A stretch of 64,000 nucleotides of DNA from an uncultured Candidatus Saccharibacteria bacterium (GTDB taxonomy: Bacteria; Patescibacteriota; Dojkabacteria; J137): contig CAYPVU010000046.1 in the NCBI GenBank assembly GCA_964414295.1, positions 2,767-66,766 of the forward strand, written 5' to 3'. The notes under the pieces were generated by a model. That model was not told the DNA's origin. It saw nothing but the letters and a program-made list of their open reading frames with translations, and did not search any database. The position numbers and the translations under genes are program-made. Positions 1-61,387 of this stretch are shown piece after piece. How positions within the stretch are numbered: position 1 is the first letter of the stretch; each line of letters starts with the position of its first letter.

Positions 1-2
1 AA

Positions 3-1371: not shown

Positions 1372-1414
1372 GCTTAGAGAGATAGTTTTTAGTTAATTAA
1401 TTTAAAATTTTATT

Positions 1415-1990: not shown

Positions 1991-2001
1991 TTGATAAATA
2001 G

Positions 2002-3680: not shown

Positions 3681-3695
3681 TTTAAAAAATAAATA

Positions 3696-6165: not shown

Positions 6166-6183
6166 CAATTAAAATTAAATAAA

Positions 6184-7213: not shown

Positions 7214-7260
7214 CTCTACTTATTCTAAAGATAAGAAGTTGTTAAACTAGTTTTGATAGG

Positions 7261-7290
7261 TATTATAGGGAGTTAATTCTCCCTATAATA
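7261..7290 (+). terminator. perfect 12-bp-stem hairpin TATTATAGGGAG-TTAATT-CTCCCTATAATA (terminator or operator)
   Basis: 30-nt perfect palindrome in the 116-nt gap after the 6371..7213 gene. Confidence 0.4.
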
Positions 7291-7329
7291 TTAAAAACCA
7301 TAGAGTTATAAAATTATAAAATGTAAATT

Positions 7330-8250: not shown

Positions 8251-8435
8251 TGGCTGAAGAAAATATAAGAAAGATTGATCAATCTAAAATAGATAGATTG
8301 GAGGTTATTAATCATGCTTCAAATGATAAACCTATTGGTAGAATTTTAACTTTATATAAAGAATTAGGAGATTTTAATAGTATTGAGTTAGCAGTGCAAG
8401 ATAACGGTAAAACTATTAAAATATTTTTAGATTAA
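8250..8435 (+). CDS. hypothetical protein
   Basis: 61-aa ORF, ATGA-overlapped with the upstream gene. Confidence 0.3.
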   Translation: MAEENIRKIDQSKIDRLEVINHASNDKPIGRILTLYKELGDFNSIELAVQDNGKTIKIFLD

Positions 8436-8510
8436 CAAATTAAATTAATTATTAACATGAAGAAGATTTAAGAAAAATTACAATAAAATGAAAAATTGAG
8501 AAAGCAAAAA

Positions 8511-8537
8511 AGGGAGCTTAACTGCTCCCTCTTTTTA
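8511..8537. terminator. bidirectional rho-independent terminator between convergent operons
   Basis: AGGGAGC-TTAACT-GCTCCCT hairpin with an A-run upstream and a T-run (CTTTTTATTTTTT) downstream. It sits between the + gene ending at 8435 and the - gene ending at 8535. Confidence 0.5.
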
Positions 8538-16100: not shown

Positions 16101-19100
16101 TCTATTAATTTAGATCCTTTTACTTTACTAGAACCATCATCATAAAACTCTTCATATAGTTGTTTAAGCTTAGTACTACCATTAGGAGTAATTAACTGTT
16201 TAAATATTATATCATTAGGACCACTATTTCTTAATACAGTATGATTAATTTGATTTAATCTATTTTGTAATATTTGCTCTTCTGATAAAGGTTTATTATC
16301 AAAGTTATGATTATTAATAAATATATTTAATTTATCCACGTCAAAATCAGAACCACCTTGTGCAACTATCTCAGAAGGTACTACAACAGATTGTCCAGAT
16401 TCAGCAGGTAAAAATCCTACTATTTTAAAACTAACCATTGAGTTAAGTCCTTGTGTAGGAATACGATATCCTAATACATCTAATAATTCAGGATTAATTT
16501 TAGCTAAGTCTTCAACTGTTTTAACACCTTTATCAGCCCACATATTAGGAACTAATATTTCAGCTTGTAGAATCTCTTTACCATTTTTATCATTCTTTCT
16601 AACAAAAGCTAATCTTCTAGATCCTACTTCTTTATCAGTTTTCATACCAACAGTTTCAAATCCTGTTGATGCTACTTGAATTAATGTAGTACCTTTAGTT
16701 TTTTGTTTAATAATTCTATTATTAACTAAAGCTTGGAATAAGTTTTCTATTTTATTTCTAACTACAAGAGAATCTAAACTAGCCTTTAGTTTACTAGGAT
16801 TGTCTTTATCATATAATTCATCAAGACCATCTATAATATTCTCAGGTAAATTTCTTTGTCTTACTTCAGCCTTAATTAACTTTAATAGTTTTTCAGTATT
16901 ATTAAAAGTATAAATATCTTCTTCTTTAGTTACACCTAGCTCAGATAATAACTTTTCTTTAGATATTTCTGTAAGTCTATCTATAATATCAGAATACTCA
17001 TTAAATAATTCAGTAGCTGTAACTTCTTTATTATTATAAAAGTCAATTAACTGATAGTTATTATCAACACCTAGACCAAATAAATTAGAGAATAATAGTT
17101 TTCTTAGCTGTGTACCGTATAATATATTAGTTTTAACTTCCTGATTAGTATCTAACTGTAATCTTAAATAATCTAATCTTATTTTATTAGTATATAATTC
17201 TCCTTTATTAGATATTTTAATATCACTATTAGGATCATTATTTACATATAAATCATTTAACATAACCTTTGAGGGTGTACCTACTTTATTACCTGATTCA
17301 AATACAGCTATACCTACTCCATTATTCATTAAAGATTTATTTAAGTTCTCTAATTTACTACCTTTAATCATTGTAGGTAATAAAGGAACTAATGATAACT
17401 TTAAATAGAATGGTACATAAGAATCTTTATAATTTAGATCTGGTCCATAGTGCATTGGTTTTATTGGACTAAATAAAGCAAACTCTTCTTTAGTAATAGT
17501 TTGGTTATTCATTAATTTCTTATAAGCAGCTTCATGCGAATCAGACCAATAATAACCACCTAATCTAATCATATAATCTCTAAATGCAGGTAATGTAATA
17601 TATCCTTGAGCATCTGCTTCATTTAATTTAGCATAAGTTTCATCTACTATAGCAGGATCAATATATTTTTTATATTCATCTGTTAATAAAGATGTAATTA
17701 TAACATCCTTATAAACAGCTACTTTCATAGTACCATCTGTAGGATATTCAGATACTTGCTCAGGAAGTACGTTAATAAAATGATCTCTATATATTAAATT
17801 ATTAATATAAGAATCAATAGCAGGTATCTTACCAGTTGCTATTATACCAGGAGTTCTTTTATAGAAATCTTTAAAATAAGCTAAATCACCAAAAAATAAT
17901 TTAGTTTGTTCTATTGCACTAATTAACTCATTAACTCCAAATATAGCAGCTATTTCATTAATTTTATAAGATTGTAAGTTTTTACTTAAATCTGAAGAAG
18001 TTACATTAAACTCTTGTAATTTAGGTAATAATCTATTATTAGTATAATCTGTTAGATAATCAAATAACTCTCCTCTAAATCTATCTAATAGTTCATCATA
18101 TACTTTAGTACCTTCAATAATAGGTAACTTATAAGTTATTAAATCACTTTTTAGTTTATCAGATAACCAATCAAATAATAAAAACTCTTTACCATTTTTA
18201 TCAAACTCTTCTACTCCTTCTAATGTATCATAACTATTGATTCTATTAAGTTCATCTAATACATATCCAAAGAATTGTCTTTGTAACTCAGGATTAACAG
18301 ATACTCTATTATTATCTATTTGTATATCTTCTTTAGTAAATACTTTTAATCCTTTTAAACCATATTCTAATTTCTTATCAGCAGGTCTTAATAAAGTATG
18401 TATTTTATTATCTAATAAGTCTATTATCCTAGATATAATAATATCTTTTTCAGATAGCTTAGAATGATGTTTAGATTCTTCTTCAGCACTAATACCATCT
18501 CTAATAACTATTTGTAATTTACTATTATTTTTAATCTGTCCTAACCAAGTACTATGAACAATATTTTTATTGTTAGCAGTATCTAATTGAGGTAATACTT
18601 TATTATTTTTTAAATCATTAATTATTTGAGCTAAATAATTATATAAAGTAACAGCATAAACAGATTTACCTTCAGAATTAATAAAGTTTAATTCTATTTC
18701 ATCAACAGAATTAAGAGCTTCCATATTAATTAACTGTTTAAATCTACCAGCAGATATATTATCACCATAGTTAAACCATTCAGTAATTTGTTTATCTTCA
18801 TTTATACTTTTTAGTACTTCAGCTTTTAACTCAGCTACTATACCTTTAGCTTTCTTATAAGTTTCTTCATTACTTAATTTAATACCTAAAGAATCTAAAA
18901 ATAATTTATCATTATCTTTAACACTATTATATAGTTTTAATTTTTCTTCTTTAGTTCCAATAGAATATTTAGAATTTTTAATTCCTGATAAAAACTCTTT
19001 TCTAATTTTACTTTCAAGCTTTTCTGTAATAGCATCTATAGAATAAATGTTACCATCTCTATCTACAATTGTTTTTACATAGTCATTTTTAGTTTTACTA

Positions 19101-22100
19101 AATGCTTGAACAAAATCATATAATAATCTAGCTTGATCTAAATCTTTAATAGTTAAATCTTCAGTAACTCCTAAATGATCTAATATTTGATACATCCAAG
19201 GATATTGATTAACATTGTTTTTAAGAACATTAATCATAGAAGGCATATCAGTAATACCATTTAAAGTTTCAGCTAATATAGCCCAAGTTTTATCAAAGTC
19301 TACTAATTTAACTTCTCCTTTAGCTATTGCAGTATAAAGGTTACCTTTATCATTAAACACACTAGCATCTTTATATTCAAATAAATTGCGTATTAATAAT
19401 TTAATAGTATTAGGTAATCCATTCTTAGATGAAAATTCAACAGATGGTTTAAAATCTAAACCTGAGTTTCTATCATTTATTTTAATCTCATCATACTCTT
19501 CTACTTCATTAAATGTAGATAACCCAAACTCTGATAAATTATCATAATGTAATTTAGAAAACTCATTCCAGTTTTGTATAATTAAACTATATAATTTTGT
19601 ATCTGCTACAGAATTAGCTTCTTTAATATAATCTAATAACATAGGGTAGTAGTAAACTTCTAACATCCCTTTATCAGATATTTTACTTAAATGCTTTTGT
19701 GAAAATCCTCTTTTAGTATAGATATTCATGAATATAATATTCATAGCATCTAAAGCAGTTTTAACTTGTTCTTGAGTTAAACTTACTTTTCTAGTAACAT
19801 TATTATCATCAGTATAATTAAATATTCTAACTCTAAAGAAGTTATTATTAGTTGTATTTAATTTATTTAAATTACGAGTAATAGGTGTAGCATTAGCATA
19901 CATACCTTTATTAATTTTATTAAATAAAGTATCAGCATCTAATGGTTTACCTAATATTAAATGTTTAAAGAAATCAAATATCTTTTGGAAGAAATTCTTT
20001 TTAGTTTTTTCTTCTTTATTAAATTTTAATTTACCATCTGATAATACATAATCTCTAAACTCTTCAGCTAATGCTTCTTCCACTTCTAAATCTGTAGCAT
20101 TAGGTTTATTGTGTCTTTTTCTATAATCATTGTATAATGATAATCTTTGCTTATCATTTAAAAATAATTGTGATACTACGTGAAAAGCTTCATGGTAAAC
20201 AGTACCTACTTCTGCTACTTCAGATACTTCAACTGTACCTAATTTCTCAGCAGATACATAAAATCTACCAAATGCTTCTTGTCCATATTTAGCAACTTCT
20301 ATTAAATCAGATACTTTAAGAAACTTAATTTGAGGAAATCTTTCTCTAAACCAAGCTTCTTCTTTTTCCATATCTATCTTTTCATATGGATTATTATCTG
20401 TTTTAAGTCTAAAATTAAAAGGTAGAGCAATATCTCCAGATTCAGTTAAATTAATATCTAATGCAGATCCTGTGGTTGTTTCACTGTTAACTTCTGTTTT
20501 ACTAATTACAGGTTGACTAGCAGATTGTATATTTAAAGCTTCTAAAGCAGCTTGTGAAGCATCATCTATTACTATACCAGTATTATCAACAGGTACTTCT
20601 TCTTGCATACCTTCTTTAATATCTATATCTATATTAGTAATATCAACAGCTTGATTTATATCACCAAATGCAGACATTACAGACTCATTGACTGTAGGAT
20701 TATTAGTTGGTGAAACAGGCTCTGACTTATTACCTAATACATTAGATAAGCTAGTGCCAGTAAGAGTAACTTTTTGAGTAGAAGTAGTCTTAGCTATAGG
20801 TTGATCATATAGATTATTAGAATCATATGAAAAATATACACTTAAAAATCTTTTACCAGTATTATTAACGTTCCCTACAACATCTGTTGAAAATATAGGA
20901 GTTCTCTTTTGAGGAGCTATAGATTTACTACCAGGTGTAGCATGAGCAGTTAAATACTTAGCATAACTATCATATAAGTTATAGTTTTTAATTTCAAGCT
21001 TTTTATCTTTTATTTCCCAATTAGTTATCTCTAAATGTTTACTAGTATTATCTCTTTGTTGATCTAATAATTTTTTAGATACATTATTTAATTTATTTTC
21101 TAATAACCAATCTTTTAATAACTTTTGATTTTGTTCATCAGCTATCTTATCCATTGTAATAGTATTTTCACCAAATACTAAACTATTAGCTTCATAATCA
21201 AAGTATATAGCAGTCTTAGGATTCTGATTATTATTTCCCCAATAAATTAAAGATCCTATAATAGAATAAGATTTATCTTGAATATTTTCAGATTGTTTAG
21301 ATGGTACTAAATAATATTTAAAACCATCTATCATAATATGATTTTGTCTAAAATTAGATAAATCACCATTAGATATATTAGATATATATTTTAATATATC
21401 TATAATTAAATCAGCATTTTTACTAGAAATATTATTAGGTACTAATTCAGCAACTGTACCTTCAGGTCCTAATATTACTTGCCCATTAGCATTAGGAATA
21501 AAGTAATATAAAGCTCCTGATTTTCTAACATTTTTAATACTACCATCAGGTAATACTATATGAGGAGTTTTATTATTCTCAGTGGTTTGTGCTACAAATA
21601 AAGACTTATGTAAATTATCATCTACACCAAAAGTTTCTTCTACATTATTTCTAGCTCTTTGTCCATTTCTAGTAACAATAGTATTTAATATACCATTAGA
21701 TTTACCAGTAACTTTTAAATATACAGGTTTATCAGATGACTTAATTTTATTTCTAAAGTCCTCAAACTTTTGAATATCATCTACTCTACGTTTATTATAT
21801 TCTTCTTCTGTTTCACCAGGTCTAGTTTCTGAAGCTAATACTCTATCATAATATGTAGGTTCATGTATAAATGCATATAGATGTACTCCATCTACTATAA
21901 CAGGTTCAGTACCATTATATAAAAATACTTTGATAGTACCATCTTCTTGTGCTTCAGCTCTTAAAAAATAATTATTATCTACAGTATTATTCTTAGGATC
22001 TCTTAGATAATCAAACCATTTATCAGCATCATTTTCAGTATTAAATTCTAACTGACCTTCTTCATTAAATATATCTTCATACTCTCCAGTATATAATACA

Positions 22101-25100
22101 TCTAATCCAGCAGTAGAATATAAATTAGGTTTAGCTTTTCTAGTTAACTTATGAGTAGTTTTAGCTACATCTAAAGAATTATCTTTTGTATCATTAGACT
22201 CTTGTTCATTAAAAGATATTTCTCCAGGTCTAGATACACTATTAGTAGATTGTTTAAATAAGCTAGAATAACGTTTTTTATGCTTATCTAATACTTTTTT
22301 ATATTTAGCTAAAGGTTTTAACTCAGCTTTATATTGTTCTAATAATCTTTCTTTTTCTTTTATTAAATTTTCTAATATAGCTGCTTCATTTTCTCTTAAA
22401 GTAATTTCTTCATTAAGAGCAATATTTTCTTTAGAATTAACAGGTAAGTTATCTAACTCTTTTATAGAATTAACTTTATCTAATAACTTTTTAAAATATT
22501 CATATTTACCTCTTAACGCAGCTTTAAGTTTATTAATTATTTGTTTTAAAATAGATAATGATTCTTTAGCTGTAGATATAGCCTTTTCTGTATCTTCAAT
22601 TAATTTTTCTAATTGAACAGCTCTACCATCTAAATCAACTAAATTAAGAGAAGCTAACTCAGGTCTTTTAGATTCTAAATCGTTTTTCTCAGATTCTAAT
22701 TTACTTATTTCAGATTGAATAGAATAATAAATATTATTTAATTTTTCAATCTTTTCTAAGATAAATTTATTTTTTATTTTTTTCTTATCTTTAGTAATAT
22801 TAGATATTTCTTCTAATATTTTATTAGCTTCATTTTCTTTAGCTGTTATTTTTCTATTAATAGAATCTATTCTTCGATCTAATTGAGATAGAAGTTCATT
22901 AATTGTAGCTAATCTACTAGCAGCATCAATAAAGTCTTCATTAGCTTTATTTCTTAAACTTAAAGCAGCTTCATCTAACTTACGAGGCTTATATTTATTT
23001 TTGTTTTTGAATAACTCATTAATAGCATATCTAGTAACACCACCAGTAGGTTTGTGTACTTCTAAGAACTTATTACCAGAAGCATCTTGTATTACAGTAC
23101 CTTCTAATATTTGTCCATCTATATCTACTTCTACAATGTCACCAGTATTATATTCAGCTTCAAATTCTTTTAATTCTGTTTCATCCTTAGCAGCTTTAGT
23201 TTCTTTTTCATTAACTATTTTAGTAGCTTCTTCTTCTTTCTTTTTAGCTTCTTTAGCTTTCTTCTCAATAGTTTGAGGATTAGTTAATTCATCAAATCTT
23301 TTATAAGACTTTCTTAATTCTTTTATAAAAGCTTTTCTTTCTTTCTCTAAAGCTTCTAAATCTTTTTTAGAAGGTGATCCTTGTAGTTCATCAGAAAGTT
23401 CTTCAGCAGCTTCAGAAAGAGCTTCAGCAAATAAGTTTTTATCTTTTTCTAATTCTGCTTGTTTAATAGATACTTTATTGTTTAAAGCTTCTAAACCTTC
23501 TTTTAAACTTTTTTGTACTAAGGCTTCATTAAATATTTGATTTCTAACAGCAGGAGTAATTCCTCCAAATCTATCTGTTAGTTGATTATATAATTGTTCT
23601 AACTCTAAAGCTTTTTGTCTATATTCTCTAGATATAGTTTTACCATCTATAACATTACCTTTAGAATCTTTCATTTCAGGTAATACTATACCTTGTTGAG
23701 CTAATTGCTCATTAGTTAAGTCTTTAAGAGAATCTATCTCATTTAATAATCTTTCTCCTAAACCAGCTTCAAAATGAGTAAAAGCCCATCTATTAAATTG
23801 CTGATCTTTAAAGTAATTAAATAGTTCTTCACTACCAGCCTTAGCAGCTAGTTCTTGAGCTTCTTGTAATTTACCAGATTGTGCGTATTCTTGTATAGTT
23901 TTAATTATAGCATTCTTATCAACTTTTAATTCTCCAGTTTTTTCATCTTTAGTAATAAATTTACCAAAAGTATCATTCTTAAACTGATTAGCGTCTATAA
24001 GCTTTTTAAGATCTTCTAATTGTTTTCTTTCAGCTTTACCTCCTTCACCTATAGCTTTAGCAGAAGCTCCAAATAATCCACCTAAGATCATACCTGCTCC
24101 CATTGCATCCCAACCTTCTTTAGTTGTAAATGCGTTCATATATTCTTTAAATACTCCAGATATAGTTCCTAAATCTTCATAATCTGGTTCTAAATATTTC
24201 TTTTTATTATATTCTTGGAAAGCGTGTTGTAAACCTTCTTCAACTATACCTTCACTAAATGCTTGAGTAGCAAACTCTTTACCTATTTGTTTAGTAACAG
24301 CTTTCTTAGGTAAAGCAATAGTACCATCTTCTAATACATCTAATAAAGCTTTTCTACTATTATTATATCTTCTAAACCAAGAAGCAGCTTGCATCTTTTC
24401 TAAAGGTAATAGTAACATATTTAAACCAACTGTAGACATAGCAGCTTCAGCAGCTTTTTTCTTAGCTGTAGAATCATCATATCCTTGATTTAATAAATCA
24501 GAATATACTTCATCATATGTTTGTTTACCTTCAGCAATAGACTCTATAGATCTTGCAACACTACCAACAGTCCATTCAGATAGTTCTTTTGTAACTTTAT
24601 TTAAAGGAGTTTTTTGTAAGCTATTTGCATTTAATACTTTAATAGCAGCTTTATCTCCCATACTAGCAGCTTGTTCTAAAGCACCTAATTCTCCTATACT
24701 TAATCTAGTAGCATCAGATAATCTTTTACCATATAAAGATTTAGTAGCAGGTCCTATTAATTTACTAGCCCCATAACCAGTTAAATAAGCAGAAGCTATA
24801 AAAGCAGCACCATCAACTAAATCATCTGTCCAATAATCTAAGTCTGTTAAAGCTCTATGTAAGAAGTTTTTATTTTGATCAGCTTTAGTATTATAAATAG
24901 GAAGAGCTTCTTTTATACTTTCTTCAATATCCATAATAGCTCTAGATACAGGATTTTCAAATAAAGCAGAAGCATCTTGTTGAATAAGAGCAGAAGGAAT
25001 ACCTATTAGTATATCAGATATACTTGTAGCAGCTTTAGTAACTGTAGTACCAGCTAATCTACCTATACCATGAGCTACTGATTCACCTATACCAAATCTT

Positions 25101-25375
25101 TCAGCTCTAATTTCTTCTAATTCATCTTTAGAGAAATATGGAGATCTAAAGTCCATATCTCTAACATCTTCATTAGTAGCCCAAGATTTACCGTAACCAG
25201 CAGTTTCTGTAAAAATATTTGATCTGCTACCAGATTTGTAGTTTCCTCTTAATATATCATCAACTGTTAAAACAGGTGCTTGTCCTTGTAAATTAGTATT
25301 AGTAGAAGTAGATTTTTTATTTTTATCATCTCCTCCTGTATTACCAGTTAAAATATCATCTATTATAGCGCTCAT
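13151..25375 (-). CDS. giant multidomain virion protein (4074 aa): coiled-coil N-terminal third, HExxH zincin motif, crAss-like virion RNA polymerase DxDxD motif, C-terminal NADAR/YbiA-like domain
   Basis: Uninterrupted 12.2-kb ORF. VYHEAFHVVSQLF at about aa 1728. SDFDVDK at aa 3010-3014 (nt 16334..16348). NADAR-like ELSNFAVRPFTFKGVSFNSVEQAYQSLK...FEQNPKALQKLLATGKSELTHTQDKGKWGKEFPKLLMEVRQEL at aa ~3795-3927. Confidence 0.6.
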   Translation of the reverse strand: MSAIIDDILTGNTGGDDKNKKSTSTNTNLQGQAPVLTVDDILRGNYKSGSRSNIFTETAGYGKSWATNEDVRDMDFRSPYFSKDELEEIRAERFGIGESVAHGIGRLAGTTVTKAATSISDILIGIPSALIQQDASALFENPVSRAIMDIEESIKEALPIYNTKADQNKNFLHRALTDLDYWTDDLVDGAAFIASAYLTGYGASKLIGPATKSLYGKRLSDATRLSIGELGALEQAASMGDKAAIKVLNANSLQKTPLNKVTKELSEWTVGSVARSIESIAEGKQTYDEVYSDLLNQGYDDSTAKKKAAEAAMSTVGLNMLLLPLEKMQAASWFRRYNNSRKALLDVLEDGTIALPKKAVTKQIGKEFATQAFSEGIVEEGLQHAFQEYNKKKYLEPDYEDLGTISGVFKEYMNAFTTKEGWDAMGAGMILGGLFGASAKAIGEGGKAERKQLEDLKKLIDANQFKNDTFGKFITKDEKTGELKVDKNAIIKTIQEYAQSGKLQEAQELAAKAGSEELFNYFKDQQFNRWAFTHFEAGLGERLLNEIDSLKDLTNEQLAQQGIVLPEMKDSKGNVIDGKTISREYRQKALELEQLYNQLTDRFGGITPAVRNQIFNEALVQKSLKEGLEALNNKVSIKQAELEKDKNLFAEALSEAAEELSDELQGSPSKKDLEALEKERKAFIKELRKSYKRFDELTNPQTIEKKAKEAKKKEEEATKIVNEKETKAAKDETELKEFEAEYNTGDIVEVDIDGQILEGTVIQDASGNKFLEVHKPTGGVTRYAINELFKNKNKYKPRKLDEAALSLRNKANEDFIDAASRLATINELLSQLDRRIDSINRKITAKENEANKILEEISNITKDKKKIKNKFILEKIEKLNNIYYSIQSEISKLESEKNDLESKRPELASLNLVDLDGRAVQLEKLIEDTEKAISTAKESLSILKQIINKLKAALRGKYEYFKKLLDKVNSIKELDNLPVNSKENIALNEEITLRENEAAILENLIKEKERLLEQYKAELKPLAKYKKVLDKHKKRYSSLFKQSTNSVSRPGEISFNEQESNDTKDNSLDVAKTTHKLTRKAKPNLYSTAGLDVLYTGEYEDIFNEEGQLEFNTENDADKWFDYLRDPKNNTVDNNYFLRAEAQEDGTIKVFLYNGTEPVIVDGVHLYAFIHEPTYYDRVLASETRPGETEEEYNKRRVDDIQKFEDFRNKIKSSDKPVYLKVTGKSNGILNTIVTRNGQRARNNVEETFGVDDNLHKSLFVAQTTENNKTPHIVLPDGSIKNVRKSGALYYFIPNANGQVILGPEGTVAELVPNNISSKNADLIIDILKYISNISNGDLSNFRQNHIMIDGFKYYLVPSKQSENIQDKSYSIIGSLIYWGNNNQNPKTAIYFDYEANSLVFGENTITMDKIADEQNQKLLKDWLLENKLNNVSKKLLDQQRDNTSKHLEITNWEIKDKKLEIKNYNLYDSYAKYLTAHATPGSKSIAPQKRTPIFSTDVVGNVNNTGKRFLSVYFSYDSNNLYDQPIAKTTSTQKVTLTGTSLSNVLGNKSEPVSPTNNPTVNESVMSAFGDINQAVDITNIDIDIKEGMQEEVPVDNTGIVIDDASQAALEALNIQSASQPVISKTEVNSETTTGSALDINLTESGDIALPFNFRLKTDNNPYEKIDMEKEEAWFRERFPQIKFLKVSDLIEVAKYGQEAFGRFYVSAEKLGTVEVSEVAEVGTVYHEAFHVVSQLFLNDKQRLSLYNDYRKRHNKPNATDLEVEEALAEEFRDYVLSDGKLKFNKEEKTKKNFFQKIFDFFKHLILGKPLDADTLFNKINKGMYANATPITRNLNKLNTTNNNFFRVRIFNYTDDNNVTRKVSLTQEQVKTALDAMNIIFMNIYTKRGFSQKHLSKISDKGMLEVYYYPMLLDYIKEANSVADTKLYSLIIQNWNEFSKLHYDNLSEFGLSTFNEVEEYDEIKINDRNSGLDFKPSVEFSSKNGLPNTIKLLIRNLFEYKDASVFNDKGNLYTAIAKGEVKLVDFDKTWAILAETLNGITDMPSMINVLKNNVNQYPWMYQILDHLGVTEDLTIKDLDQARLLYDFVQAFSKTKNDYVKTIVDRDGNIYSIDAITEKLESKIRKEFLSGIKNSKYSIGTKEEKLKLYNSVKDNDKLFLDSLGIKLSNEETYKKAKGIVAELKAEVLKSINEDKQITEWFNYGDNISAGRFKQLINMEALNSVDEIELNFINSEGKSVYAVTLYNYLAQIINDLKNNKVLPQLDTANNKNIVHSTWLGQIKNNSKLQIVIRDGISAEEESKHHSKLSEKDIIISRIIDLLDNKIHTLLRPADKKLEYGLKGLKVFTKEDIQIDNNRVSVNPELQRQFFGYVLDELNRINSYDTLEGVEEFDKNGKEFLLFDWLSDKLKSDLITYKLPIIEGTKVYDELLDRFRGELFDYLTDYTNNRLLPKLQEFNVTSSDLSKNLQSYKINEIAAIFGVNELISAIEQTKLFFGDLAYFKDFYKRTPGIIATGKIPAIDSYINNLIYRDHFINVLPEQVSEYPTDGTMKVAVYKDVIITSLLTDEYKKYIDPAIVDETYAKLNEADAQGYITLPAFRDYMIRLGGYYWSDSHEAAYKKLMNNQTITKEEFALFSPIKPMHYGPDLNYKDSYVPFYLKLSLVPLLPTMIKGSKLENLNKSLMNNGVGIAVFESGNKVGTPSKVMLNDLYVNNDPNSDIKISNKGELYTNKIRLDYLRLQLDTNQEVKTNILYGTQLRKLLFSNLFGLGVDNNYQLIDFYNNKEVTATELFNEYSDIIDRLTEISKEKLLSELGVTKEEDIYTFNNTEKLLKLIKAEVRQRNLPENIIDGLDELYDKDNPSKLKASLDSLVVRNKIENLFQALVNNRIIKQKTKGTTLIQVASTGFETVGMKTDKEVGSRRLAFVRKNDKNGKEILQAEILVPNMWADKGVKTVEDLAKINPELLDVLGYRIPTQGLNSMVSFKIVGFLPAESGQSVVVPSEIVAQGGSDFDVDKLNIFINNHNFDNKPLSEEQILQNRLNQINHTVLRNSGPNDIIFKQLITPNGSTKLKQLYEEFYDDGSSKVKGSKLIEFPTILDTHVRNMEGKAGVGQSALHNTFHILSQIANLYVVPGFSYNFDFNKTQEGYPSLAGVYDNKGNTLISEMISEFLTAFVDNAKDPFISKMNINPMTTDLALYMISIGADYKFVIEFLNQPIIRDFVKESRINKGLTGKNNLSKNEVIKKIRDKYIKQLNKDSVKLYQYSLYDAKEPEVIKFVNTQYKKDRDNILGNNTFNFNNLRELRQLSEAENAKLQLQLLDDYLRLMEDSKLYTDAINATKDDTFGVGKDLPSAYNYIAKQEKAGIDPTVPIGRVLIPNLKEVYNATFMRGFKNNGAKFSIDLWGQLLLTGSPLYKKFLNEIKSFMNIEGDIQDEKLLDTITDSFLNYVYLVGLDETLVNQNLLKELFLGDNSVGKQILAIKRDPNHPLHNNLFINRYVIPLIKNKSSIDNVQFINKKFNKYTSDQITGSIQELFNTNPALGGKLIDLALFQSGIAESYLSYMKYLPADKMIPVLQRALNLFKEAYIKDQEGITRGFVVQFAKNNWKTVLSKFKLYNMVFNQELQEMIPLYNTNRVYKDGDRILGFSLKKSDYNKVYSNKKYIKMWNPDAKREFIYENMGKDSQDMPVFVIDNPLGNGANLQEWYKTKKKSIIDENNTGLTLEQRNFIADSLGRVNEYNMVKPTPISTIEINETNVEQDNVIEDELTSALLNPVELSVPAKEAPIDNLFDPSLPKINIYADTNENAELSNFAVRPFTFKGVSFNSVEQAYQSLKGGKFDKATYDNRAYIPFNRNGVMTVSKFRGPLGTTTDAQQTELMGQLIKASFEQNPKALQKLLATGKSELTHTQDKGKWGKEFPKLLMEVRQELKVTDNLDNYILKNQEFSIDHPNKETSTPIIDYKIDSKNNFNNIKINVISVNNNVTTAKITYNDGYTFTEDFNTEDFNKKMKMYGIKDKFNNLDNYINSLINSDKSIIFANLIQEVKDKLEAQDITESYFNMGTEEDKRVMLKCLKNNQ
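13595..13993 (-). other. NADAR (YbiA/DUF1768-like) domain segment of the giant ORF
   Basis: Aligns by eye with E. coli YbiA. GDFSNFAAWP..DG..W.TSEHYFQAQKF matches ELSNFAVRPFTFKGVSFNSVEQAYQSLKGGKF. FEQHAELRALLLAT...WGDGGHGKGKNRLGYLLMELREQL matches FEQNPKALQKLLATG...WGKEFPKLLMEVRQEL. Confidence 0.6.
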
Positions 25376-53541: not shown

Positions 53542-56500
53542 TTACCATAGCTTATTTTTACGTTTTGTAAATAGTTTTCTATTCCAAAAATCAGAATTTA
53601 ATATATCATTTTTATCATTAGCTTCTTCTATTTTAACTTTCTTTACTTCTTGTATATGATACATACACATCATTAGACTCATAACTCTATCAAAGTTACC
53701 TTCTGGATTATAGGCAATTAACTCTTTTAATAGAGGAATACATCTTATTTTATGCATATTTTTAATACCATTAGATGAATCATAGTCTTCTAATAACCAC
53801 ATAATTATTAGATCCTCACCATGATCTTTTAATGATTTATTCATATGCATACCTTTACCTCTTTCTACTTTAGAGTTTTGTATAACATCTTTAATATAAG
53901 CAGGTTGATCTAAAAGTAAATAAGTTTCATTCTTACCTTCTAAATATTGGAATAGACCTTTTTTCTCATTTTCATATAAACATCTAGCATTATAAAAATG
54001 AAGTAATCTTCTTAAAATTTCATAATACTCATTTGCTGTTTTAGGTCTAGCTGTATATTCAGCAACTATTCTATTTGTTATTTTATCTATAATTATAGTA
54101 GAACCTAAAGAAGTTGTGCCAGATTGATCATGATCATAAGGGTCAGTACCTGCTAAATATCTACCAAAAGGTACATTTCCTTCCTCATCTTCATAAGGCA
54201 TCTCATATATAACCACACATCCTTCAGAATCTTGATCTTTAGTTAAAGGAAATTCTTTTAAAGGATTTAAATTAGGATTAGGCTTCCATTCATATTTAAG
54301 TGAATTAGGATTAAATACAATATCTCCTATATAATTAGTATTTTGTATTCTTTCTGATCCTTCTACTTGAGATAATATTATTTGTAAATCAGCTAAAGGA
54401 AATCTATTACCACTAGTTCTTAAAAATGCTTCAGCTGGAGATAAAGGTTGCTGAGTTATTTCTTTTTCATAAGCTCTCTTATTACCAGATTTTTTAACTA
54501 TTTCTCTTTTTAGTAGCAAAGATTCTTTTGCTTTAGCTCTATCAGAGTTACCATCTTTATCTACATAAGGAGGCTTATACCAAGAATCATCTACAAACCA
54601 TCCACAAGAACCTATTGCATTTTCATCCCATATATTTTCATAAGCTCTTAATCCATAAGAAGAAGGATTATAAAACATATCTGCAAAATCTTGTGTACCA
54701 CCTTCCATATCTCCACCTGTTCCATAAATAATAGGAATACCTATCATTATTTCTCCATCTGAGAATAATGGTTTAGATAACATATAAGATTCTATAAGTC
54801 CAGTCCACTTTCCTGCTTCTTCAAATAACATTACAGAAGCAGATTTACCAATTGATTTAAAAGGGTTATCTTTAAAACTCATAGTCATTATTTCAGACTT
54901 GAATCCAGATTCTACTTCTATACCATTTATTTTTTCTTTAAATCCTGATTTAATATATTGTCTAGTATCTATTAACTTTCTTTTAGCCCAATCAGTATTA
55001 GTGTTAATAAAGTTAATCATGTCTAAAGCCATATTCATTGTAGTTTGTGAATACTCCGCTAAAAAAGCTGCTATAATAGAAAATGAATTTCTATACCAAT
55101 TATATTCATAAACCGTATTAAATGCTCCTTTATATGAGTTATGAGTAACTATATAATCTCTAGTTATATATAAATGATTTGGGTTTTCTACTAAAATGCA
55201 AGAACTTTCTTCTTGATAATCTAATTTTTTAACAGAAGTAATAGCTACTTTATTATGATTATATTTTCTTTTTTTAATATTTTTATTTTTTCTATCTAGT
55301 TTAAATATTTCATAATCTGTTATTATATTAACTACCCAAGAATCTCTAACAATAGATTGCTTATTATTTGGAAAATTCATTAGTTTTCTACCATTACTAC
55401 TTTTAGATTTAGTAGCTCTTAATCCAAGACTTCTACAAATATCAACTACATCATTAGCTAATGTTTCAGAAGAAGAAGTAAATCTACATGTTCCATTTGG
55501 ACTACTAGTACCATCAGTATCCATTAATCCTTTTAATAACTCTAATCTTGTATCATAAGAACCTTTCTTATAAATTTCAGGAATAAACTTATCATAAGAT
55601 TTTACATTTAATTTTAAATTTTGTATAAATCTTAATAAATTATTAGGAGTACCAGGACCACCATCTTTTACAGTAATACTATATTTAAAAGGAGTGGTTG
55701 TTTTATTAACATTGTATCTAGATTTTAATATATCTTTTACAATATTAACTAGTTGTTCATCGTTTGATGAAAACTCTAAACTTGATTTTGTTAGACTTCC
55801 ATCTCCTATTAAAACACCTAGTAAATAAGGATCTATTGGTAAAGGTAAATCATAGAAATTTAAAGGTTTACAATTTTCTATAAAGTAAGCATAGTAACAT
55901 TTATTACCTTTATTTCTTTTTAATTTCTTATCTAAAAAGAATTTAGTATTTACTATTCTTTTTTTACCTCTTTGATCAATAATTTCCCAAAGATGTTCTA
56001 ATCCGCATTTTACTTTTCTACCATCTCTTAATTCTAACTCATATACATCCTTCTTTCCTTGAGGATATACTTCAAGGATTCTTGTAGGATAACCGTCAGG
56101 ATTCATTACTAAATCATTAGGTTTTAATGTACCCATTGGTTTGAATCCAAATGGAGTTAAAACAAGTTCACTATTAGGTTGTTCAAATCCTTTTCTCCTT
56201 GATTTAGCTACTATTATACCTTCTTTATTTAATTTAGCTTTCTCTAATTCATGATAATAATAGTAATCCATATCTAGAAAACGAGGAAATCCTTCGTACT
56301 TTCTAGCTTTTTTACCTTCTCCTTCAGTTATTTTAATTCTACCAAAGTTAAGATAAGCATAATGTTCTCCAGTTATTCTAATACCACCTACAGTATAACC
56401 TTCTCTACATCTTCTATCTTGTTCATCCCAATACTCTTGATATTCATATGTTCCTTCAGGAGCATCACAATAAGTATTATATTTAACAAACCTTTTAGCT

Positions 56501-56583
56501 TCTTCACAAAAATAATCAGTATTTATGAAAGTAGTAGGGTTTGTTAAATAAGGTATATCATGTATAAGTATATCGTTACTCAT
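53542..56583 (-). CDS. terL: terminase large subunit interrupted by an intein (1013-aa precursor)
   Basis: Candidate P-loop remnant AKSRRKGF sits at the N-extein/intein junction. Nuclease-domain motif LAGTDPYDHDQSGTTSLGSTIIIDK (RuvC-like G.DP....D). Gene order TerL-portal. Confidence 0.65.
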   Translation of the reverse strand: MSNDILIHDIPYLTNPTTFINTDYFCEEAKRFVKYNTYCDAPEGTYEYQEYWDEQDRRCREGYTVGGIRITGEHYAYLNFGRIKITEGEGKKARKYEGFPRFLDMDYYYYHELEKAKLNKEGIIVAKSRRKGFEQPNSELVLTPFGFKPMGTLKPNDLVMNPDGYPTRILEVYPQGKKDVYELELRDGRKVKCGLEHLWEIIDQRGKKRIVNTKFFLDKKLKRNKGNKCYYAYFIENCKPLNFYDLPLPIDPYLLGVLIGDGSLTKSSLEFSSNDEQLVNIVKDILKSRYNVNKTTTPFKYSITVKDGGPGTPNNLLRFIQNLKLNVKSYDKFIPEIYKKGSYDTRLELLKGLMDTDGTSSPNGTCRFTSSSETLANDVVDICRSLGLRATKSKSSNGRKLMNFPNNKQSIVRDSWVVNIITDYEIFKLDRKNKNIKKRKYNHNKVAITSVKKLDYQEESSCILVENPNHLYITRDYIVTHNSYKGAFNTVYEYNWYRNSFSIIAAFLAEYSQTTMNMALDMINFINTNTDWAKRKLIDTRQYIKSGFKEKINGIEVESGFKSEIMTMSFKDNPFKSIGKSASVMLFEEAGKWTGLIESYMLSKPLFSDGEIMIGIPIIYGTGGDMEGGTQDFADMFYNPSSYGLRAYENIWDENAIGSCGWFVDDSWYKPPYVDKDGNSDRAKAKESLLLKREIVKKSGNKRAYEKEITQQPLSPAEAFLRTSGNRFPLADLQIILSQVEGSERIQNTNYIGDIVFNPNSLKYEWKPNPNLNPLKEFPLTKDQDSEGCVVIYEMPYEDEEGNVPFGRYLAGTDPYDHDQSGTTSLGSTIIIDKITNRIVAEYTARPKTANEYYEILRRLLHFYNARCLYENEKKGLFQYLEGKNETYLLLDQPAYIKDVIQNSKVERGKGMHMNKSLKDHGEDLIIMWLLEDYDSSNGIKNMHKIRCIPLLKELIAYNPEGNFDRVMSLMMCMYHIQEVKKVKIEEANDKNDILNSDFWNRKLFTKRKNKLW
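55138..56172 (-). mobile_element. intein with LAGLIDADG homing endonuclease domain inside terL (about 345 aa)
   Basis: Two LAGLIDADG blocks (YLLGVLIGDGSL and LLKGLMDTDGTS). C-terminal splice motif ...YIVTHN|SYKG (His-Asn followed by Ser). The N-terminal junction is near ...EQPN|SELVLTPFG. Confidence 0.6.
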
Positions 56584-57562: not shown

Positions 57563-57763
57563 TTACCATTTATTTAAAGGACATTTTTTATCAATACTTC
57601 TTATAGCAGCTATAATAGGACATCCACAAGCAGTACATATACCTAATTTATTCTTAGGGCATTTAGAACATTCTTTAGCTCTATTAAGAGCTAGTTCTTC
57701 TGATTCTTTAGTTGGGAATATTATATTCTTCCAACCATCTATAATATTACTTATCTCTTCCAA
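57563..57763 (-). CDS. Cys-rich zinc-ribbon small protein
   Basis: CSKCPKNKLGICTACGCPIIAAIRSIDKKCP: CxxC ... CxxC ... C spacing. Confidence 0.35.
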   Translation of the reverse strand: MEEISNIIDGWKNIIFPTKESEELALNRAKECSKCPKNKLGICTACGCPIIAAIRSIDKKCPLNKW

Positions 57764-57953
57764 GTTCTATATCTCTAAGTTTCTTTCTATTTTTCTTAAC
57801 TCCAAATATACCTAAATGTATTGCTCTAAAAGATTCATATTTTCCAGATTCCATAGCAAGCTTAATCATCTTATATTGAGAGTTAATAACTCTTTCTACA
57901 TCACTCTTAGGAATATTTAATCTAAGAGATACTTCTCTAATCACTTTATCCAT
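57747..57953 (-). CDS. HU/IHF-like small DNA-binding protein (tentative)
   Basis: 68 aa; the layout DKVIREVSLRLNIPKSDVERVINSQYKMIKLAMESGKYESFRAIHLGIFGVKKNRKK resembles the HU helix-helix-beta-arm pattern. Confidence 0.3.
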   Translation of the reverse strand: MDKVIREVSLRLNIPKSDVERVINSQYKMIKLAMESGKYESFRAIHLGIFGVKKNRKKLRDIELGRDK

Positions 57954-58315
57954 TATTTCTCAAGTTTAAGTTTATAAGTAATATTTAAAACATTATCCTT
58001 TTCATCAGGATACTTTAAAAGATGTTTAACTATTTTATTATCATTAGTTAATATTCTTTTACTTCTAAGACTAGTAAGATGATTATTAAAAGAAGGTTCA
58101 CTCATTTTAATAGACATATACATTGCTTTTCTTGCACTAGCAGAAAAGATAAGATTAAATAACTTATCTTCATCTAGGTGTCTATTTGCATAACATAGAG
58201 TAAGAATAGTACTTAGTACTTCTACTTCTCTTTTCTTTAAATTTAAAATAGGATTTAAAGCATTTACATATGCTTTATAAAACTTTTTAATATCTACATT
58301 AACAGGTATTATCAT
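57953..58315 (-). CDS. hypothetical protein (first gene of the leftward late operon)
   Basis: 120-aa ORF whose start abuts the ORF-free island. Confidence 0.3.
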   Translation of the reverse strand: MIIPVNVDIKKFYKAYVNALNPILNLKKREVEVLSTILTLCYANRHLDEDKLFNLIFSASARKAMYMSIKMSEPSFNNHLTSLRSKRILTNDNKIVKHLLKYPDEKDNVLNITYKLKLEK

Positions 58316-58860
58316 ATCTAATCTACACTATTATAATCTACTTCTCTTCAGTTAATACCTAAAAAAGGGTAATAATCTTACGGGACTACTACCCTTAGTG
58401 TTAGTTTCATTTTAAACTGTAGTATACTAAATACTTTTGTTTATAAGAGGATTTACTAACCTAGTATCTTAATATATATTTTAGAGCATAGCATTGGCTG
58501 ACTCCATTTTAAAGTAACTAATCCTACCTATCTCTACTTCTAACTATCTAATTACTTCCCATAACTACATAGCAAAGTTTACCCCTAGTTAAGGATCTTA
58601 CTTAATACTTTTGGATTTCCTTAGTTTAATTTGCGTCTGGCTTTCGCTGTACCTACTGGGGTAGTTTTACCTACTATTGTTTCCCCACTATTAAACTTTG
58701 TTCATCCAAGGATCTATCTCTCTATTTGAGAGGAGTACTTATCTCCTTTGTTAGACCTCTAACCTAACCCTTGCTAAAGATTAGTCCCCTTAAAGGTGAA
58801 TAACAATGCAAAGATAAAACAAATATCTGACATTTCCAAATAATTTAGCAATTATTTTTA
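58316..58860. other. GC-richer ~550-bp ORF-free island, pyrimidine-rich on + strand, at the left edge of the gap between the leftward late operon and the rightward + genes (the rest of the gap, 58861..59020, is AT-rich); candidate structured ncRNA or origin
   Basis: No ORF >=60 aa in any frame. Composition is clearly less AT-rich than the flanks. Local hairpins are present, e.g. GGGTA-18nt-TACCC and GGGG/CCCC pairs; TACCTACT occurs twice. Confidence 0.35.
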
Positions 58861-59020
58861 TAAGTTTTTTATAACTATCTGAAAATCAATAAAAAATTTT
58901 TTTATAAAATTTTAAAAATGTAAGTATAAATTTAAACGAGGACCACCCCATTTCCTAACCCCCTCTCAGGCTTGGGCAGGGAAAATCCCTCGCCACTAAT
59001 AACCTAAAAACCATTTTTTT

Positions 59021-59311
59021 ATGAACAAGCAACAATTTATTGCTGCATTAAACGCAGCAGGCGTAGAATTAAAGCAGAGAGTATTTGAAGATACTGTTAT
59101 TGCTAAAACTATTAATTTATTAACTCTTGGATTTGTTAGAAGAGTAAGTAGTACTGGTAAAGCGCAGTACATTCTAACAGAAGATAATAAGGAGTTAATA
59201 ATTAATGTTACTCAGTTCAGAGATAATGATACTTACAAAATCATTAAAAGAACTGCTACAATAGAATACAAATCCATGAAACCAGGACAGTATTTTATTA
59301 TAGGATTATAA
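59021..59311 (+). CDS. hypothetical protein
   Basis: 96-aa ORF preceded by a GC-rich leader and followed by a clean terminator. Confidence 0.35.
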   Translation: MNKQQFIAALNAAGVELKQRVFEDTVIAKTINLLTLGFVRRVSSTGKAQYILTEDNKELIINVTQFRDNDTYKIIKRTATIEYKSMKPGQYFIIGL

Positions 59312-59316
59312 AGATT

Positions 59317-59340
59317 AGAGCCCTAACGGGCTCTTTTCTT
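59317..59340 (+). terminator. rho-independent terminator AGAGCCC-TAAC-GGGCTCT + TTTCTTT
   Basis: Perfect 7-bp GC-rich stem with a tetraloop and a T-run, 6 nt after the stop. Confidence 0.6.
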
Positions 59341-59510
59341 TCGTCTATTTAAGTTATTTAGATATTTATTTAATACATCTATTTAATTATTTAGATATGT
59401 ATTTAATTGAGTATTAAAGACTTAGGATTTAGATTTAATATTTAGATTTAGGTCTTTATACACCTAACCAAACAAATAACCATATTTACAATTATCTATA
59501 TTTACAATAC
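59341..59510. repeat. iteron-like direct repeats (TTATTTAGATAT x2, ATTTAGATTTA x2, TATTTAAT x3, ATATTTACAAT x2)
   Basis: Seen directly: 59355-59366 and 59388-59399; 59427-59437 and 59440-59450; 59483-59493 and 59498-59509. Confidence 0.45.
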
Positions 59511-59559
59511 TAATGTAAATTATATAGCTTATATTATTATGTTAACTATAATTAATGGT

Positions 59560-59960
59560 TGTCTTACTTATATTGAGTGGACAACTAATCCTAATGGCTA
59601 ATTAGGATTGCTATAGGTTTATACTTGTACCTGGCAGAAATAAAAACAAGTATTTAATTTAATGCACCACAACTCACTTCCCAAGGGTGAGCAGTTGTAA
59701 TATTCATCTCGGCTCCTATAAATAATAAGTTATTAGAGATGATTACTGTGCACAAGTAGAAGACCTAAATCAGATAGTCCTCGAAGATTATCATGAAGGA
59801 GTGGCTCTATTACAACTGAGTGCAGAGAGAATACTCTCATCCAAACAGGTATATTACCAATCTATAAGAAGCAGGTGTAACAGTAAGGTTACTGTCTTAT
59901 AAGGAGATATATATCAAGGTTTGCAACCTTGTGAGAGTCAAATTATCTTTAATATTAACT
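59560..59960. other. hairpin-dense non-coding stretch (candidate structured RNA / leader)
   Basis: Several perfect stems within 400 nt: GTTGTC-16nt-GACAAC, CCTAAT-GGCTA-ATTAGG, CAACTCAC...GTGAGcAGTTG, GAGAG-AATA-CTCTC, CAGTAA-GG-TTACTG, CAAGGTT-TGCA-AACCTTG. No ORF. Confidence 0.3.
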
Positions 59961-59997
59961 TAACAACAACAGACATGTTGTAAAATATGTAAAAAAT

Positions 59998-60249
59998 ATG
60001 AAAACATTAGACATGTTACAATCATTTGTAAGAAAAGAAGTTTCTATGAATGATTTAAGTTATTTGACCAAATGGCTTATGGTCGATTATCAAAATATTA
60101 CATTAATAGAATATATTAATAAAATCAACGAATTTTTATCAATAGATTTTTTTGATACTCCAAAAAAAATAAAAAGTGTTGTTGAATATTATCAACAATA
60201 TATAGAAGCAGAATTAAACTCATTAGAAAATCAATCTTATGAAGGATAG
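59998..60249 (+). CDS. hypothetical protein
   Basis: 83-aa ORF. Confidence 0.3.
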   Translation: MKTLDMLQSFVRKEVSMNDLSYLTKWLMVDYQNITLIEYINKINEFLSIDFFDTPKKIKSVVEYYQQYIEAELNSLENQSYEG

Positions 60250-60604
60250 TTCATCTATTAAAAAATTCGTATGTTAAATTGGTGTCCATATTATCTACGG
60301 ACACCAATTTCTTTGATAATAGATGATAAGTTTCTACTACGAAAGTTGTAGTTTTAATAATCATTACTATTGCAATAGTATCAGAAGCAAAGAGTATTCA
60401 TTGAAGAATATAAACAAAAAACTATGCGCTGAATATTATCAAAGTTTTATTAATATTAACCTTAAAACTATATAATATGAATGCACTACAAGAACTAATA
60501 CTCTATACAATAATATGTATAGGATTTCTATCATTACTCATTGTATTATACAATATAGATAATAATGATAACAATAATTTAACATAACCATTAATATAGC
60601 TAAT

Positions 60605-61228: not shown

Positions 61229-61387
61229 TGTCACTATTAAATATATAATGTAATCTAACTAAAGCGGTTAGCTATATATACTATAAGATTATAACTTATA
61301 TGTTTAATAAAGGTCCAAAGTCCTTGTAAAGTACAGATGGGAAAAACAATAAATTAATCTATTTTTAAACAATTAAAACTTAAAGTT

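Follow-up and report, generated by a model that had tools for sequence, protein, structure and literature searches.

Organization of the non-coding gap

The 64-kb window analyzed here (the whole stretch of DNA, 64,000 nt) corresponds to a crAss-like phage of 27% GC, whose genes run leftward up to ~58.3-59.0 kb and rightward beyond it. The first of the rightward genes occupies 59021-59311 and the next one starts at 59998, leaving a gap of 686 nt; no PHROG or Pfam matches were found for the products of 59021-59311 and 59998-60249. The subject of this work is that gap, and above all two structured RNAs predicted on its + strand: a twister-like RNA and, directly after it, a second pseudoknotted RNA termed module X. 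An initial annotation had read a cluster of short direct repeats in the gap as iterons of a replication origin or partition locus, followed by a hairpin-dense non-coding stretch, and had offered as an alternative that the hairpins form a structured 5' leader or small RNA for the genes starting at 59998. The features of the gap are the following.

59317..59344, + strand: terminator-like hairpin, AGAGCCC-TAAC-GGGCTCT plus T-rich tail (stem-loop 59317-59334; 7-bp stem, 5 GC pairs, T run)
59344..59510, no strand assigned: AT-rich spacer (14-24% GC) with direct repeats TTATTTAGATAT (twice), ATTTAGATTTA (twice), ATATTTACAAT (twice) and TATTTAAT-type words
59557..59609, + strand: two local hairpins (GGTTGTC...GACAAC; AATCCTAAT...ATTAGGATT) 5' of the twister-like RNA, found in minimum free energy and centroid structures
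59649..59835, + strand: predicted twister-like RNA, type P1 with a P5 arm (99.4 bits with model R1, covariation, mapping onto twister)
59830..59941, + strand: module X, predicted conserved pseudoknotted RNA (71.7 bits with model R3, E = 1e-11)
59966..59981, + strand: small hairpin ACAACA-GACA-TGTTGT, 17 nt 5' of the ATG at 59998, kept in the relative L157

The upstream gene 59021-59311 ends with the terminator-like hairpin at 59317-59334. Between 59312 and 59997 there is no open reading frame (ORF) of more than 35 amino acids, in line with the initial annotation of the hairpin stretch, and the perfect stem-loops that it had noticed are indeed numerous (59557-59586, 59587-59609, 59673-59691, 59880-59895, 59915-59931, and 59966-59981), with an additional long-range perfect stem pairing 59692-59702 with 59808-59818. 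The + strand folds to -112.5 kcal/mol, compared with -92.2 ± 5.5 kcal/mol in shuffles (z = -3.70, with 0 of 100 shuffles as good), i.e. 3.7 standard deviations better, and the - strand gives z = -2.42. The two hairpins at 59557-59609 have no similarity in other loci; 59961-59996, which contains the small hairpin, is 89% identical to L157 414-450. Comparison with copies from other phages, described below, shows that the hairpin stretch holds two conserved modules predicted to fold as RNA on the + strand, co-oriented with gene 59998, so the leader or small RNA alternative was essentially right.

A conserved RNA family in phage loci

Relatives found through the large terminase (TerL; 62% identity) could be aligned at this locus only in two short pieces of the hairpin region, CCCAAGGGTNAGCAGTTGTAAT (59681-59702) and ATTACAACTGAGTGCAGAG (59810-59828), whereas the two small flanking ORFs, used as protein queries, retrieved no relatives. 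Among the matches listed, each piece has exact copies in over 120 IMG/VR contigs, with the two 60-184 nt from one another on the same strand. A covariance model (R1) built from an alignment of 22 copies matches the window at 59649-59841 (99.4 bits, E = 5e-23), its one credible copy there, and identifies 125 + 107 copies in ~180 fetched IMG/VR phage loci, most of which were fetched by words containing the P5 stem, a retrieval biased to one P5 sequence. Alignments were fitted to R1 itself, and E-values are rough owing to shortened calibration. The copies often stand 2-4 in tandem and occupy a single strand per locus in 28 out of 28 cases. They are mostly co-oriented with downstream ORFs (128 of 145) and often lie close upstream of start codons (median 146 nt; 100 nt or less in 56 of 132).

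The family consensus is [P1]-U-AAUGCA-CC-AUAAC-CUCAC-UUCCCAAGG-GUGAG-[P5 stem, variable interior]-AG-UGCA-GAGGG-[P1']. Paired cells of the alignment are complementary in 91.2% of cases, against 84.0% in column shuffles (0 of 500 reach the observed value) and 28-44% when the partners are slid, and double-sided changes occur in 23 of the 30 pairs. All five pairs of P4 covary (CUCAC/GUGAG changes to CUGAU/AUCAG, CUAGC/GCUAG or UCAAC/GUUGA), P2 covaries as well (UGCA/UGCA to UGCG/CGCA, with CG to UA and AU to GC changes), and P1 covaries heavily. The P5 interior ranges from 4 to 184 nt, and in copies retrieved without P5 the stem is entirely different or minimal (CAG-UUAU-CUG in L175 and L289; others in L136, L161, L299, and L308); the minimal family copy, L175:2131-2205, has 75 nt and a 3-bp P5. 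Since G·U pairs occur at many positions, only + strand RNA can form the structure.

Neither the 44-nt consensus nor the whole locus had a blastn match in 50,697 GenBank phage records, and nothing relevant came up when the literature was searched for the conserved words as strings. A pattern scan of genome collections, too permissive with its 16 specified bases, returned 120 loci of which 3 were real: L289, L299 (from a Chitinophagaceae metagenome-assembled genome, MAG), and L308 (a Sediminibacterium MAG). The few genome-collection matches with an assigned taxon are Chitinophagaceae MAG contigs (Bacteroidota), consistent with the promoter type of the window described below. Adjacency of copies to tRNA genes is not enriched (1 within 60 nt versus 2.1 expected). 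In the window, R1 also gives a weak match at 61235-61352 on the + strand (10 bits, E = 3), in a 233-nt gap before gene 61388; it reads UAAUGUA...UACAGAUGGG, with a compensatory P2 and no CCC loop, and as a second family copy it was judged to be probably a chance match for want of that loop.

Two sub-types depart from the consensus. Type 2 copies have L4 interrupted, just 5' of CCCAAGG, by a conserved domain of two helices (100-150 nt), in the sequence CUCAC-GUGGAUAUAAAGACUUCUUA...UAAGAUGUGAAACCAC-CUGAUUAA...UUAAUCAG-UCU-CCCAAGG (e.g., L003:139-500 on the - strand, L043, L062, L118, L174, and L185). Type 3 keeps P2, P5, and GAGGG, and its CCCAAGG loop is replaced by a tetraloop hairpin, CC-UUCG-GG; a CCC directly 5' of (A/U)AUGCAC would be able to pair with GGG (e.g., L016:12518-12651, L047:633-822, L068:11054-11213, L098:5478-5697, and L025:903-1028).

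Further RNA elements were seen around copies of the family. Module Y (GUCCAAAUUUAACUGAUUAUUAGACU...AAUCAGUCCUUAGAGUGGUGGUUGAUAGAAAUAUCAUAAACUCU), the third RNA-like element to recur, adjoins twister-like copies in L003 (downstream of 139), L029:8885-8990, L079, and L185:620-660, and is absent from the window. A full-length tmRNA gene (73 bits) lies at L138:9393-9837 on the - strand, on a viral contig with twister-like copies.

Correspondence with the twister ribozyme

The elements that define twister are U^AA, a 4-bp P2, GAGGG, the P4 loop, and the pseudoknots T1 and T2 (PMC5408937, PMC6154101). The rice twister, whose sequence was verified in a paper, is UAACACUGCCAAUGCCGGUCCCAAGCCCGGAUAAAAGUGGAGGG, i.e. 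UAA-CACU-GCC-AAU-GCCGG-UCCCAAGC-CCGG-AUAAA-AGUG-GAGGG, with CCGGTCCCAAGCCCGG as its P4/L4 (PMC11662667). Set against it, the family has the same U^AA scissile step, a 4-bp P2 (UGCA/UGCA for CACU/AGUG), the same GAGGG 3' of the P2 3' strand, UUCCCAAGG in place of the P4 loop UCCCAAGC, the same CCC:GGG in T1, and CC:GG in place of GC:GC in T2, which is complementary with one pair flipped. The order of elements is that of twister type P1 (Rfam RF03160; Roth et al. 2014): P1, U^AA, P2, L2, P4 with a UCCCAAG L4, an optional P5, P2', GAGGG, and P1'. Family and twister also share an A·G beside P2 and variable P5 and P1, and the predicted T1 of the family has the twister form CCC(A):(A)GGG and its predicted T2 the same two bases between L2 and L4. 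In twister, T1 comprises three Watson-Crick pairs joining CCC of L4 to GGG in the 3' strand of L1, with an A-A pair in addition. In the window, the predicted elements on the + strand are placed as follows.

59649-59654 with 59830-59835: P1, with a 5-nt insert (59655-59659) before U59660
U59660 / A59661 (then A59662): predicted scissile bond
59663-59666 with 59821-59824: P2
C59667-C59668 with G59685-G59686: T2
59673-59677 with 59687-59691: P4
59678-59686: L4, UUCCCAAGG
59692-59702 with 59808-59818: P5, with interior 59703-59807
G59825, A59826: conserved residues after the P2 3' strand
C59680-59682 with G59827-A59828-G59829: T1

The P1-L1-P2 shell of twister (U^A-A and a 4-bp P2, then the G and A that account for the A·G pair and the proposed general base) is thus present in the window copy as in the family, and UUCCCAAGG occupies L4 in most copies as it does in the window. 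Among 166 copies, position -1 is U in 121, A13 is kept in 138, A14 in 135, G151 in 150, and A152 in 157, and the P2 pairs UA/GC/CG/AU are kept in more than 90%. T1 is complementary in 137-139 of the 166 copies, and 3 of them (L061, L063, and L075) carry a compensatory C-G to A-U change (CAC:GUG; UUCACAAGG with GAGUG). T2 (CC with GG) is paired in 113 of the 166; its only changes are C to U wobbles, and it does not covary within the family.

At L102:1135-1193 on the - strand lies a canonical type-P1 twister, which scores 49.8 bits with Rfam twister-P1 (E = 1e-10), short of the 67.2 required for gathering. A family member adjoining tRNA-Gln stands 0.7 kb away. The canonical copy has the same P2 (UGCA/UGCA) and L1 as the family and the same CAC:GUG variant of T1 (UCACAAGC with GAGUG), and R1 recovers it via the common P1-L1-P2 shell (20 bits, E = 6e-5). 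Twisters cluster genomically with other self-cleaving ribozymes (PMC5408937). Hatchet ribozymes (Rfam RF02678; 78-82 bits, gathering score 51) were detected in 3 of the 23 loci scanned, each on the same strand as family copies and ~1 kb upstream of them.

L008:5635-5767, + strand: hatchet
L011:6387-6553, + strand: hatchet
L083:3088-3239, - strand: hatchet

With these hatchets and the L102 twister, such clustering is seen at the level of the family; in the window, the Rfam scan found no hatchet or twister neighbor. The common T1 variant, the common shell, and the hatchet neighbors tie the family to genuine twisters, and the comparison above shows a one-to-one correspondence between the predicted core of the first module and that of the type-P1 twister.

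Several observations weigh against reading the family as a twister. The Rfam models twister-P1, -P3, and -P5 have no match in the window at the gathering threshold or in 59-60 kb at E <= 10, none on L038 or the minimal copy of L175 at E <= 10, and none in 7 loci at E <= 1, and a rice-twister model (R2) run with filters off missed the family and found only the canonical twister of L102. In known twisters a near-invariant G-C pair and a trans U·A pair prolong P4 into L4 (PMC5408937); neither that G-C pair nor the conserved GC dinucleotide of L2, which in the T2 of twister pairs with two bulged L4 nucleotides (GC), is retained in the family, where the G-C pair is replaced by a variable closing pair (CG 92, UG 18, AU 14, UA 6, GG 16) and an extra U before UCCCAAGG. 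U31 and A36 could nevertheless pair as the trans U·A of twister does. The family lacks P3, and P5, found in ~1% of known twisters, is the rule in it and often long. Because both pseudoknots hardly vary within the family, covariation lends T2 no support from inside it; C19-G146, an alternative fifth pair of P2 that would compete with T2, is U-A in 4 copies. The sequence conservation of P5 in the fetched set is largely ascertainment, because the copies found without P5 have a different or minimal one. Type 3 members are predicted to be unable to form the twister pseudoknots and, on that basis, cannot be twisters, so the function common to the family may not need cleavage. Finally, T1 of the window copy is GAG and not GGG, with a central C59681·A59828 mismatch. 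Given the failure of the Rfam and rice models, the T2 and P4 differences, and the type 2 and type 3 architectures, we file the family as a putative variant of the twister kind and not as an established member.

As for the activity of the window copy, high-throughput data on natural twisters indicate that the mean fraction cleaved falls from 0.76 to ~0.6 when T1 has a single imperfection and that C·A is among the better tolerated T1 mismatches; L1 is reported to be relatively tolerant of insertions (PMC11662667). The window copy is plausibly active, perhaps weakened by its T1 mismatch. A resemblance to the hairpin ribozyme (GGUAUAUUACC) was dropped, the similar sequence sitting in a non-conserved insert.

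A second pseudoknotted RNA downstream

Module X follows the twister-like RNA directly, its first 3-6 nt overlapping the P1 3' strand. The predicted parts on the + strand of the window are as follows.

59833-59839 with 59932-59938: closing helix, ACUCUCA with UGAGAGU
59840-59849: conserved strand UCCAAACAGG
59880-59895: hairpin within a variable insert
59915-59931: hairpin CAAGG (59915-59919), loop UUUGCAA (59920-59926), CCUUG (59927-59931)

The 3' half of module X was found by blastn at 54 places in the fetched loci, and the covariance model R3 gives 25 copies in 100 sources. Copies of module X have a strand UCCAA(UU)GCAGG and a hairpin, CAAGG-GUUGCAA-CCUUG; in relatives the loop of this hairpin pairs with the 5' strand. 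Compensatory changes affect the closing helix (ACUCUCA/UGAGAGU to GUUCCCG/CGGGAAC in L054), the hairpin (CAAGG/CCUUG to CAGGG/CCCUG in L020), and the pseudoknot (UGCA:UGCA to UGUA:UACA in L072 and L137). In 23 of the 25 cases a twister-like copy is present no more than 450 nt from module X, on either side of it, a figure that includes loose pattern matches and comes from loci fetched via the twister motif. No relevant Rfam 15 match was obtained at E <= 10 in 58200-60400 or at the gathering threshold in the window, the Rfam scans of the 7 loci, L038, and the minimal L175 copy likewise gave nothing for it, and assignment to hatchet was dropped, the sequences being unlike. Module X is well supported as a structured RNA, belongs to no known family, and could represent a new class of functional RNA. 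Twister-sister, pistol, and hatchet were themselves discovered through their association with twisters.

AT-rich direct repeats

The repeated words lie where the initial annotation had placed them. TTATTTAGATAT starts at 59354 and 59387 and belongs to a 26-nt repeat (88% identity, 33-nt spacing), ATTTAGATTTA starts at 59427 and 59440, and ATATTTACAAT at 59482 and 59498. In 59335-59545 (17.5% GC), 3 local exact repeats of at least 11 nt are observed versus 0.14 expected from 1000 dinucleotide shuffles of the same segment, a fraction of 0.002 of which reach 3, and within the window this is the only 211-nt stretch with at least three such repeats. The repeats therefore exceed both chance and what AT-richness would produce.

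The reading of these repeats as iterons at an origin or partition locus fared less well. They consist of three different words of 11-12 nt in two exact copies apiece, irregularly spaced (33, 13, and 16 nt); the longest repeat, of 26 nt, is also in two copies, and three or more regular copies of one 17-22-bp repeat, as iterons usually have, were not found. The segment 59312-59648 has no blastn similarity in ~190 related or motif-bearing loci, where conservation of the repeat units was looked for, and direct repeats are missing 5' of the RNA in L157 and L003, two syntenic relatives in which this RNA precedes a homologous gene. No initiator or partition protein is recognizable near the repeats; the leftward side provides sub-threshold matches only, an HU/IHF-like Bac_DNA_binding protein at 57747-57953 (- strand, E = 0.0035) and a RepC N-terminal winged-helix-like protein of 120 amino acids at 57953-58315 (- strand, E = 0.055). 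The cumulative GC-skew minimum falls at the same place as the switch in gene orientation and so does not discriminate for an origin. The tract contains no Bacteroidota-type promoter (TTTG-N17-23-TAnnTTTG). The AT-rich repeat tract is separate from the RNA modules and non-conserved, and most simply it may be intergenic promoter or regulatory DNA.

Genome context

The window belongs to an 86-kb contig of run SRR8581213. The portal gene of the phage adjoins the large terminase gene, and the nearest relatives of the terminase are Crassvirales (30-40% identity). An ORF of 4074 amino acids on the - strand (13151-25375) is virion RNA polymerase (RNAP)-like. The TerL ORF (53542-56583, - strand) has 1013 amino acids versus ~675 in close relatives (L003 5462-7489); its tblastn alignment to crAss-like TerL splits into two pieces, and it matches Pfam LAGLIDADG_3 (E = 8.6e-12, residues ~253-399) and Hom_end, so it probably harbors an intein with a homing endonuclease. 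Recoding of stop codons was considered and dropped, the window being full of long standard-code ORFs.

The Bacteroidota-type promoter motif occurs nine times on the - strand of the window and once on the + strand.

58840, 44893, 38102, 30693, 25456, 25426, 13304, 4402, 61596, - strand: TTTG-N17-23-TAnnTTTG
45325, + strand: TTTG-N17-23-TAnnTTTG

Several of the - strand motifs stand directly 5' of leftward late genes (e.g., the 4074-aa ORF and those that start at 13154, 30647, and 37992), which suggests transcription of late genes by host RNAP and a Bacteroidota host. The divergent region itself, 58316-59020, is 705 nt of non-coding DNA with GC-rich patches of up to 40% GC, a 13-bp terminator-like hairpin at 58365-58396 (- strand), and a 17% GC core at 58800-58950; it has no Rfam match, and its sole similarity to another locus is weak (58803-58851 versus L060).

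Proposed mechanism and alternatives

We lean towards the view that 59545-59997 is an early-transcript leader with a predicted variant twister-class ribozyme and a second pseudoknotted RNA, module X, and consider it moderately probable. The leader would be that of the rightward, early-type gene block starting at 59998. Within it, 59649-59835 would be a self-cleaving variant twister, open at P1 and with a long variable P5 arm, in which L4 (UUCCCAAGG) would pair with the GAG/GGG beside P1 (T1) and with the CC after P2 (T2). These pairings would form the twister active site around U59660-A59661, where the RNA would cut itself. The RNA 5' of the cut (the 59021-59311 transcript or the promoter-proximal leader) would be freed, ending in a 2',3'-cyclic phosphate, and the mRNA 3' of it would start with a 5'-OH and be compactly folded at that end. 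Module X accompanies the first module in many phages. Transcription of the region, self-cleavage (especially of this copy, with its C·A in T1), and an effect on mRNA fate are steps that we infer.

In the crAss-like phage phi14:2, long intergenic regions in the rightward early block yield very abundant early non-coding RNAs transcribed with the early genes, and the early genes are transcribed by a virion RNA polymerase from promoters with no recognizable motif (bioRxiv 10.1101/2020.03.07.982082). The gap could encode a non-catalytic leader or a stable small RNA, with a protein-binding, stability, or regulatory fold that is twister-like or twister-derived and does not cleave itself, e.g. a 5' protective structure, an antitermination-type RNA, or a riboswitch-like sensor. 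That phi14:2 makes such abundant early non-coding RNAs speaks for this possibility, as do type 3, which has no L4 loop yet keeps P2, P5, and GAGGG, the T1 mismatch of the window copy, the absence of a score from the Rfam and rice-twister models, and the frequent closeness of copies to start codons. We hold it to be rather unlikely nonetheless: all catalytic-core positions of twister are present and near-invariant (U^A, A, the 4-bp P2, G, A, and CCC:GGG), the outer shell is shared with an Rfam-significant twister in the same type of contig, hatchet ribozymes are neighbors of the family, and R1 finds no copy in phi14:2 (positions 1-12000).

Explanations at the level of DNA appear weaker. An origin or partition site, with 59344-59510 supplying iterons and a DNA-unwinding element and with the hairpins as secondary structure of the origin, would agree with the statistical enrichment of the repeats and their uniqueness in the window, with the low GC content of the tract, with its position at the divergent strand switch and skew minimum, and with the sub-threshold HU/IHF-like and RepC-N-like proteins; we consider it improbable given the two-copy, irregular words, their absence from related loci including L157 and L003, the lack of a recognizable initiator, the coincidence of skew and gene orientation, and the strand-specific RNA covariation that already explains the hairpins. 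Alternatively, the hairpins might be conserved as DNA, either as a structured promoter for the virion RNAP (cf. the hairpin promoters of phage N4) or as a recombination or homing target. The position among early genes, the presence of a giant virion-RNAP-like ORF in the phage, the lack of a known motif in crAss-like early promoters, and the very high sequence identity among distant contigs would suit such an element, but the compensatory and G·U changes fit + strand RNA only, the P5 interior varies widely in length, copies are co-oriented with downstream ORFs, and the long-range covariation of a pseudoknot has no rationale in DNA, making this very improbable. A group I intron core, an omega RNA, a retron RNA, and a bridge RNA were dropped, no partner gene being found.

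Returning to the variant twister-class ribozyme, we suggest tentatively, and as an unlikely extension, that the locus is a cassette of two ribozymes (or of a ribozyme and a partner RNA) in which module X would be a new self-cleaving or otherwise catalytic class, and the twister-like family, with its rewired T2, insertion-tolerant L4, and L4-less relatives, a distinct and possibly regulated twister branch used by Bacteroidota phages for early-transcript processing. Twisters are widespread, and their biological role is mostly guessed from genomic context. The family described here is large, phage-borne, placed in the leaders of co-oriented early-type genes of crAss-like and other Bacteroidota phages, and missed by the curated Rfam models. 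If its members are active, the sequence space of twister would widen to forms with one T2 pair flipped, with no need for the G-C extension of P4, and with large insertions in L4, annotation pipelines would be overlooking many members, and there would be a concrete hypothesis of function in the processing of phage early transcripts. An origin-like locus is re-assigned to RNA biology.

Comparison with known systems

Like iteron-type origins (plasmid and phage origins with direct repeats bound by Rep), the locus has short direct repeats clustered in an AT-rich tract close to a strand switch, but its repeats are short, two-copy, irregularly spaced, not kept in relatives, and without an adjacent initiator gene. 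It shares with phi14:2 the long non-coding intergenic regions in the rightward early block of a crAss-like phage, and differs in that R1 has no sequence or structure match in positions 1-12000 of phi14:2. Hatchet, reported solely from metagenomic sequence (PMC4604424), is unlike both RNA modules in sequence, and the shared trait is its neighborhood in L008, L011, and L083. Twister-sister (Rfam RF02681) has related helical connectivity and likewise comes from metagenomic, phage-like neighborhoods (PMC5660989). Its hairpin-loop sequence is also similar, with GUGCAAGUC in SL4 of twister-sister, GUUGCAAC in module X, and UCCCAAGG in the twister-like RNA. The Rfam twister-sister model has no match in 58200-60400 or on L038. 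In twister-sister the step that is cut is C-A, within the 3' strand of L1, and there is no Watson-Crick double pseudoknot (PMC5660989), whereas the family has the twister-type U-A in the 5' strand, together with the CCC:GGG pseudoknot.

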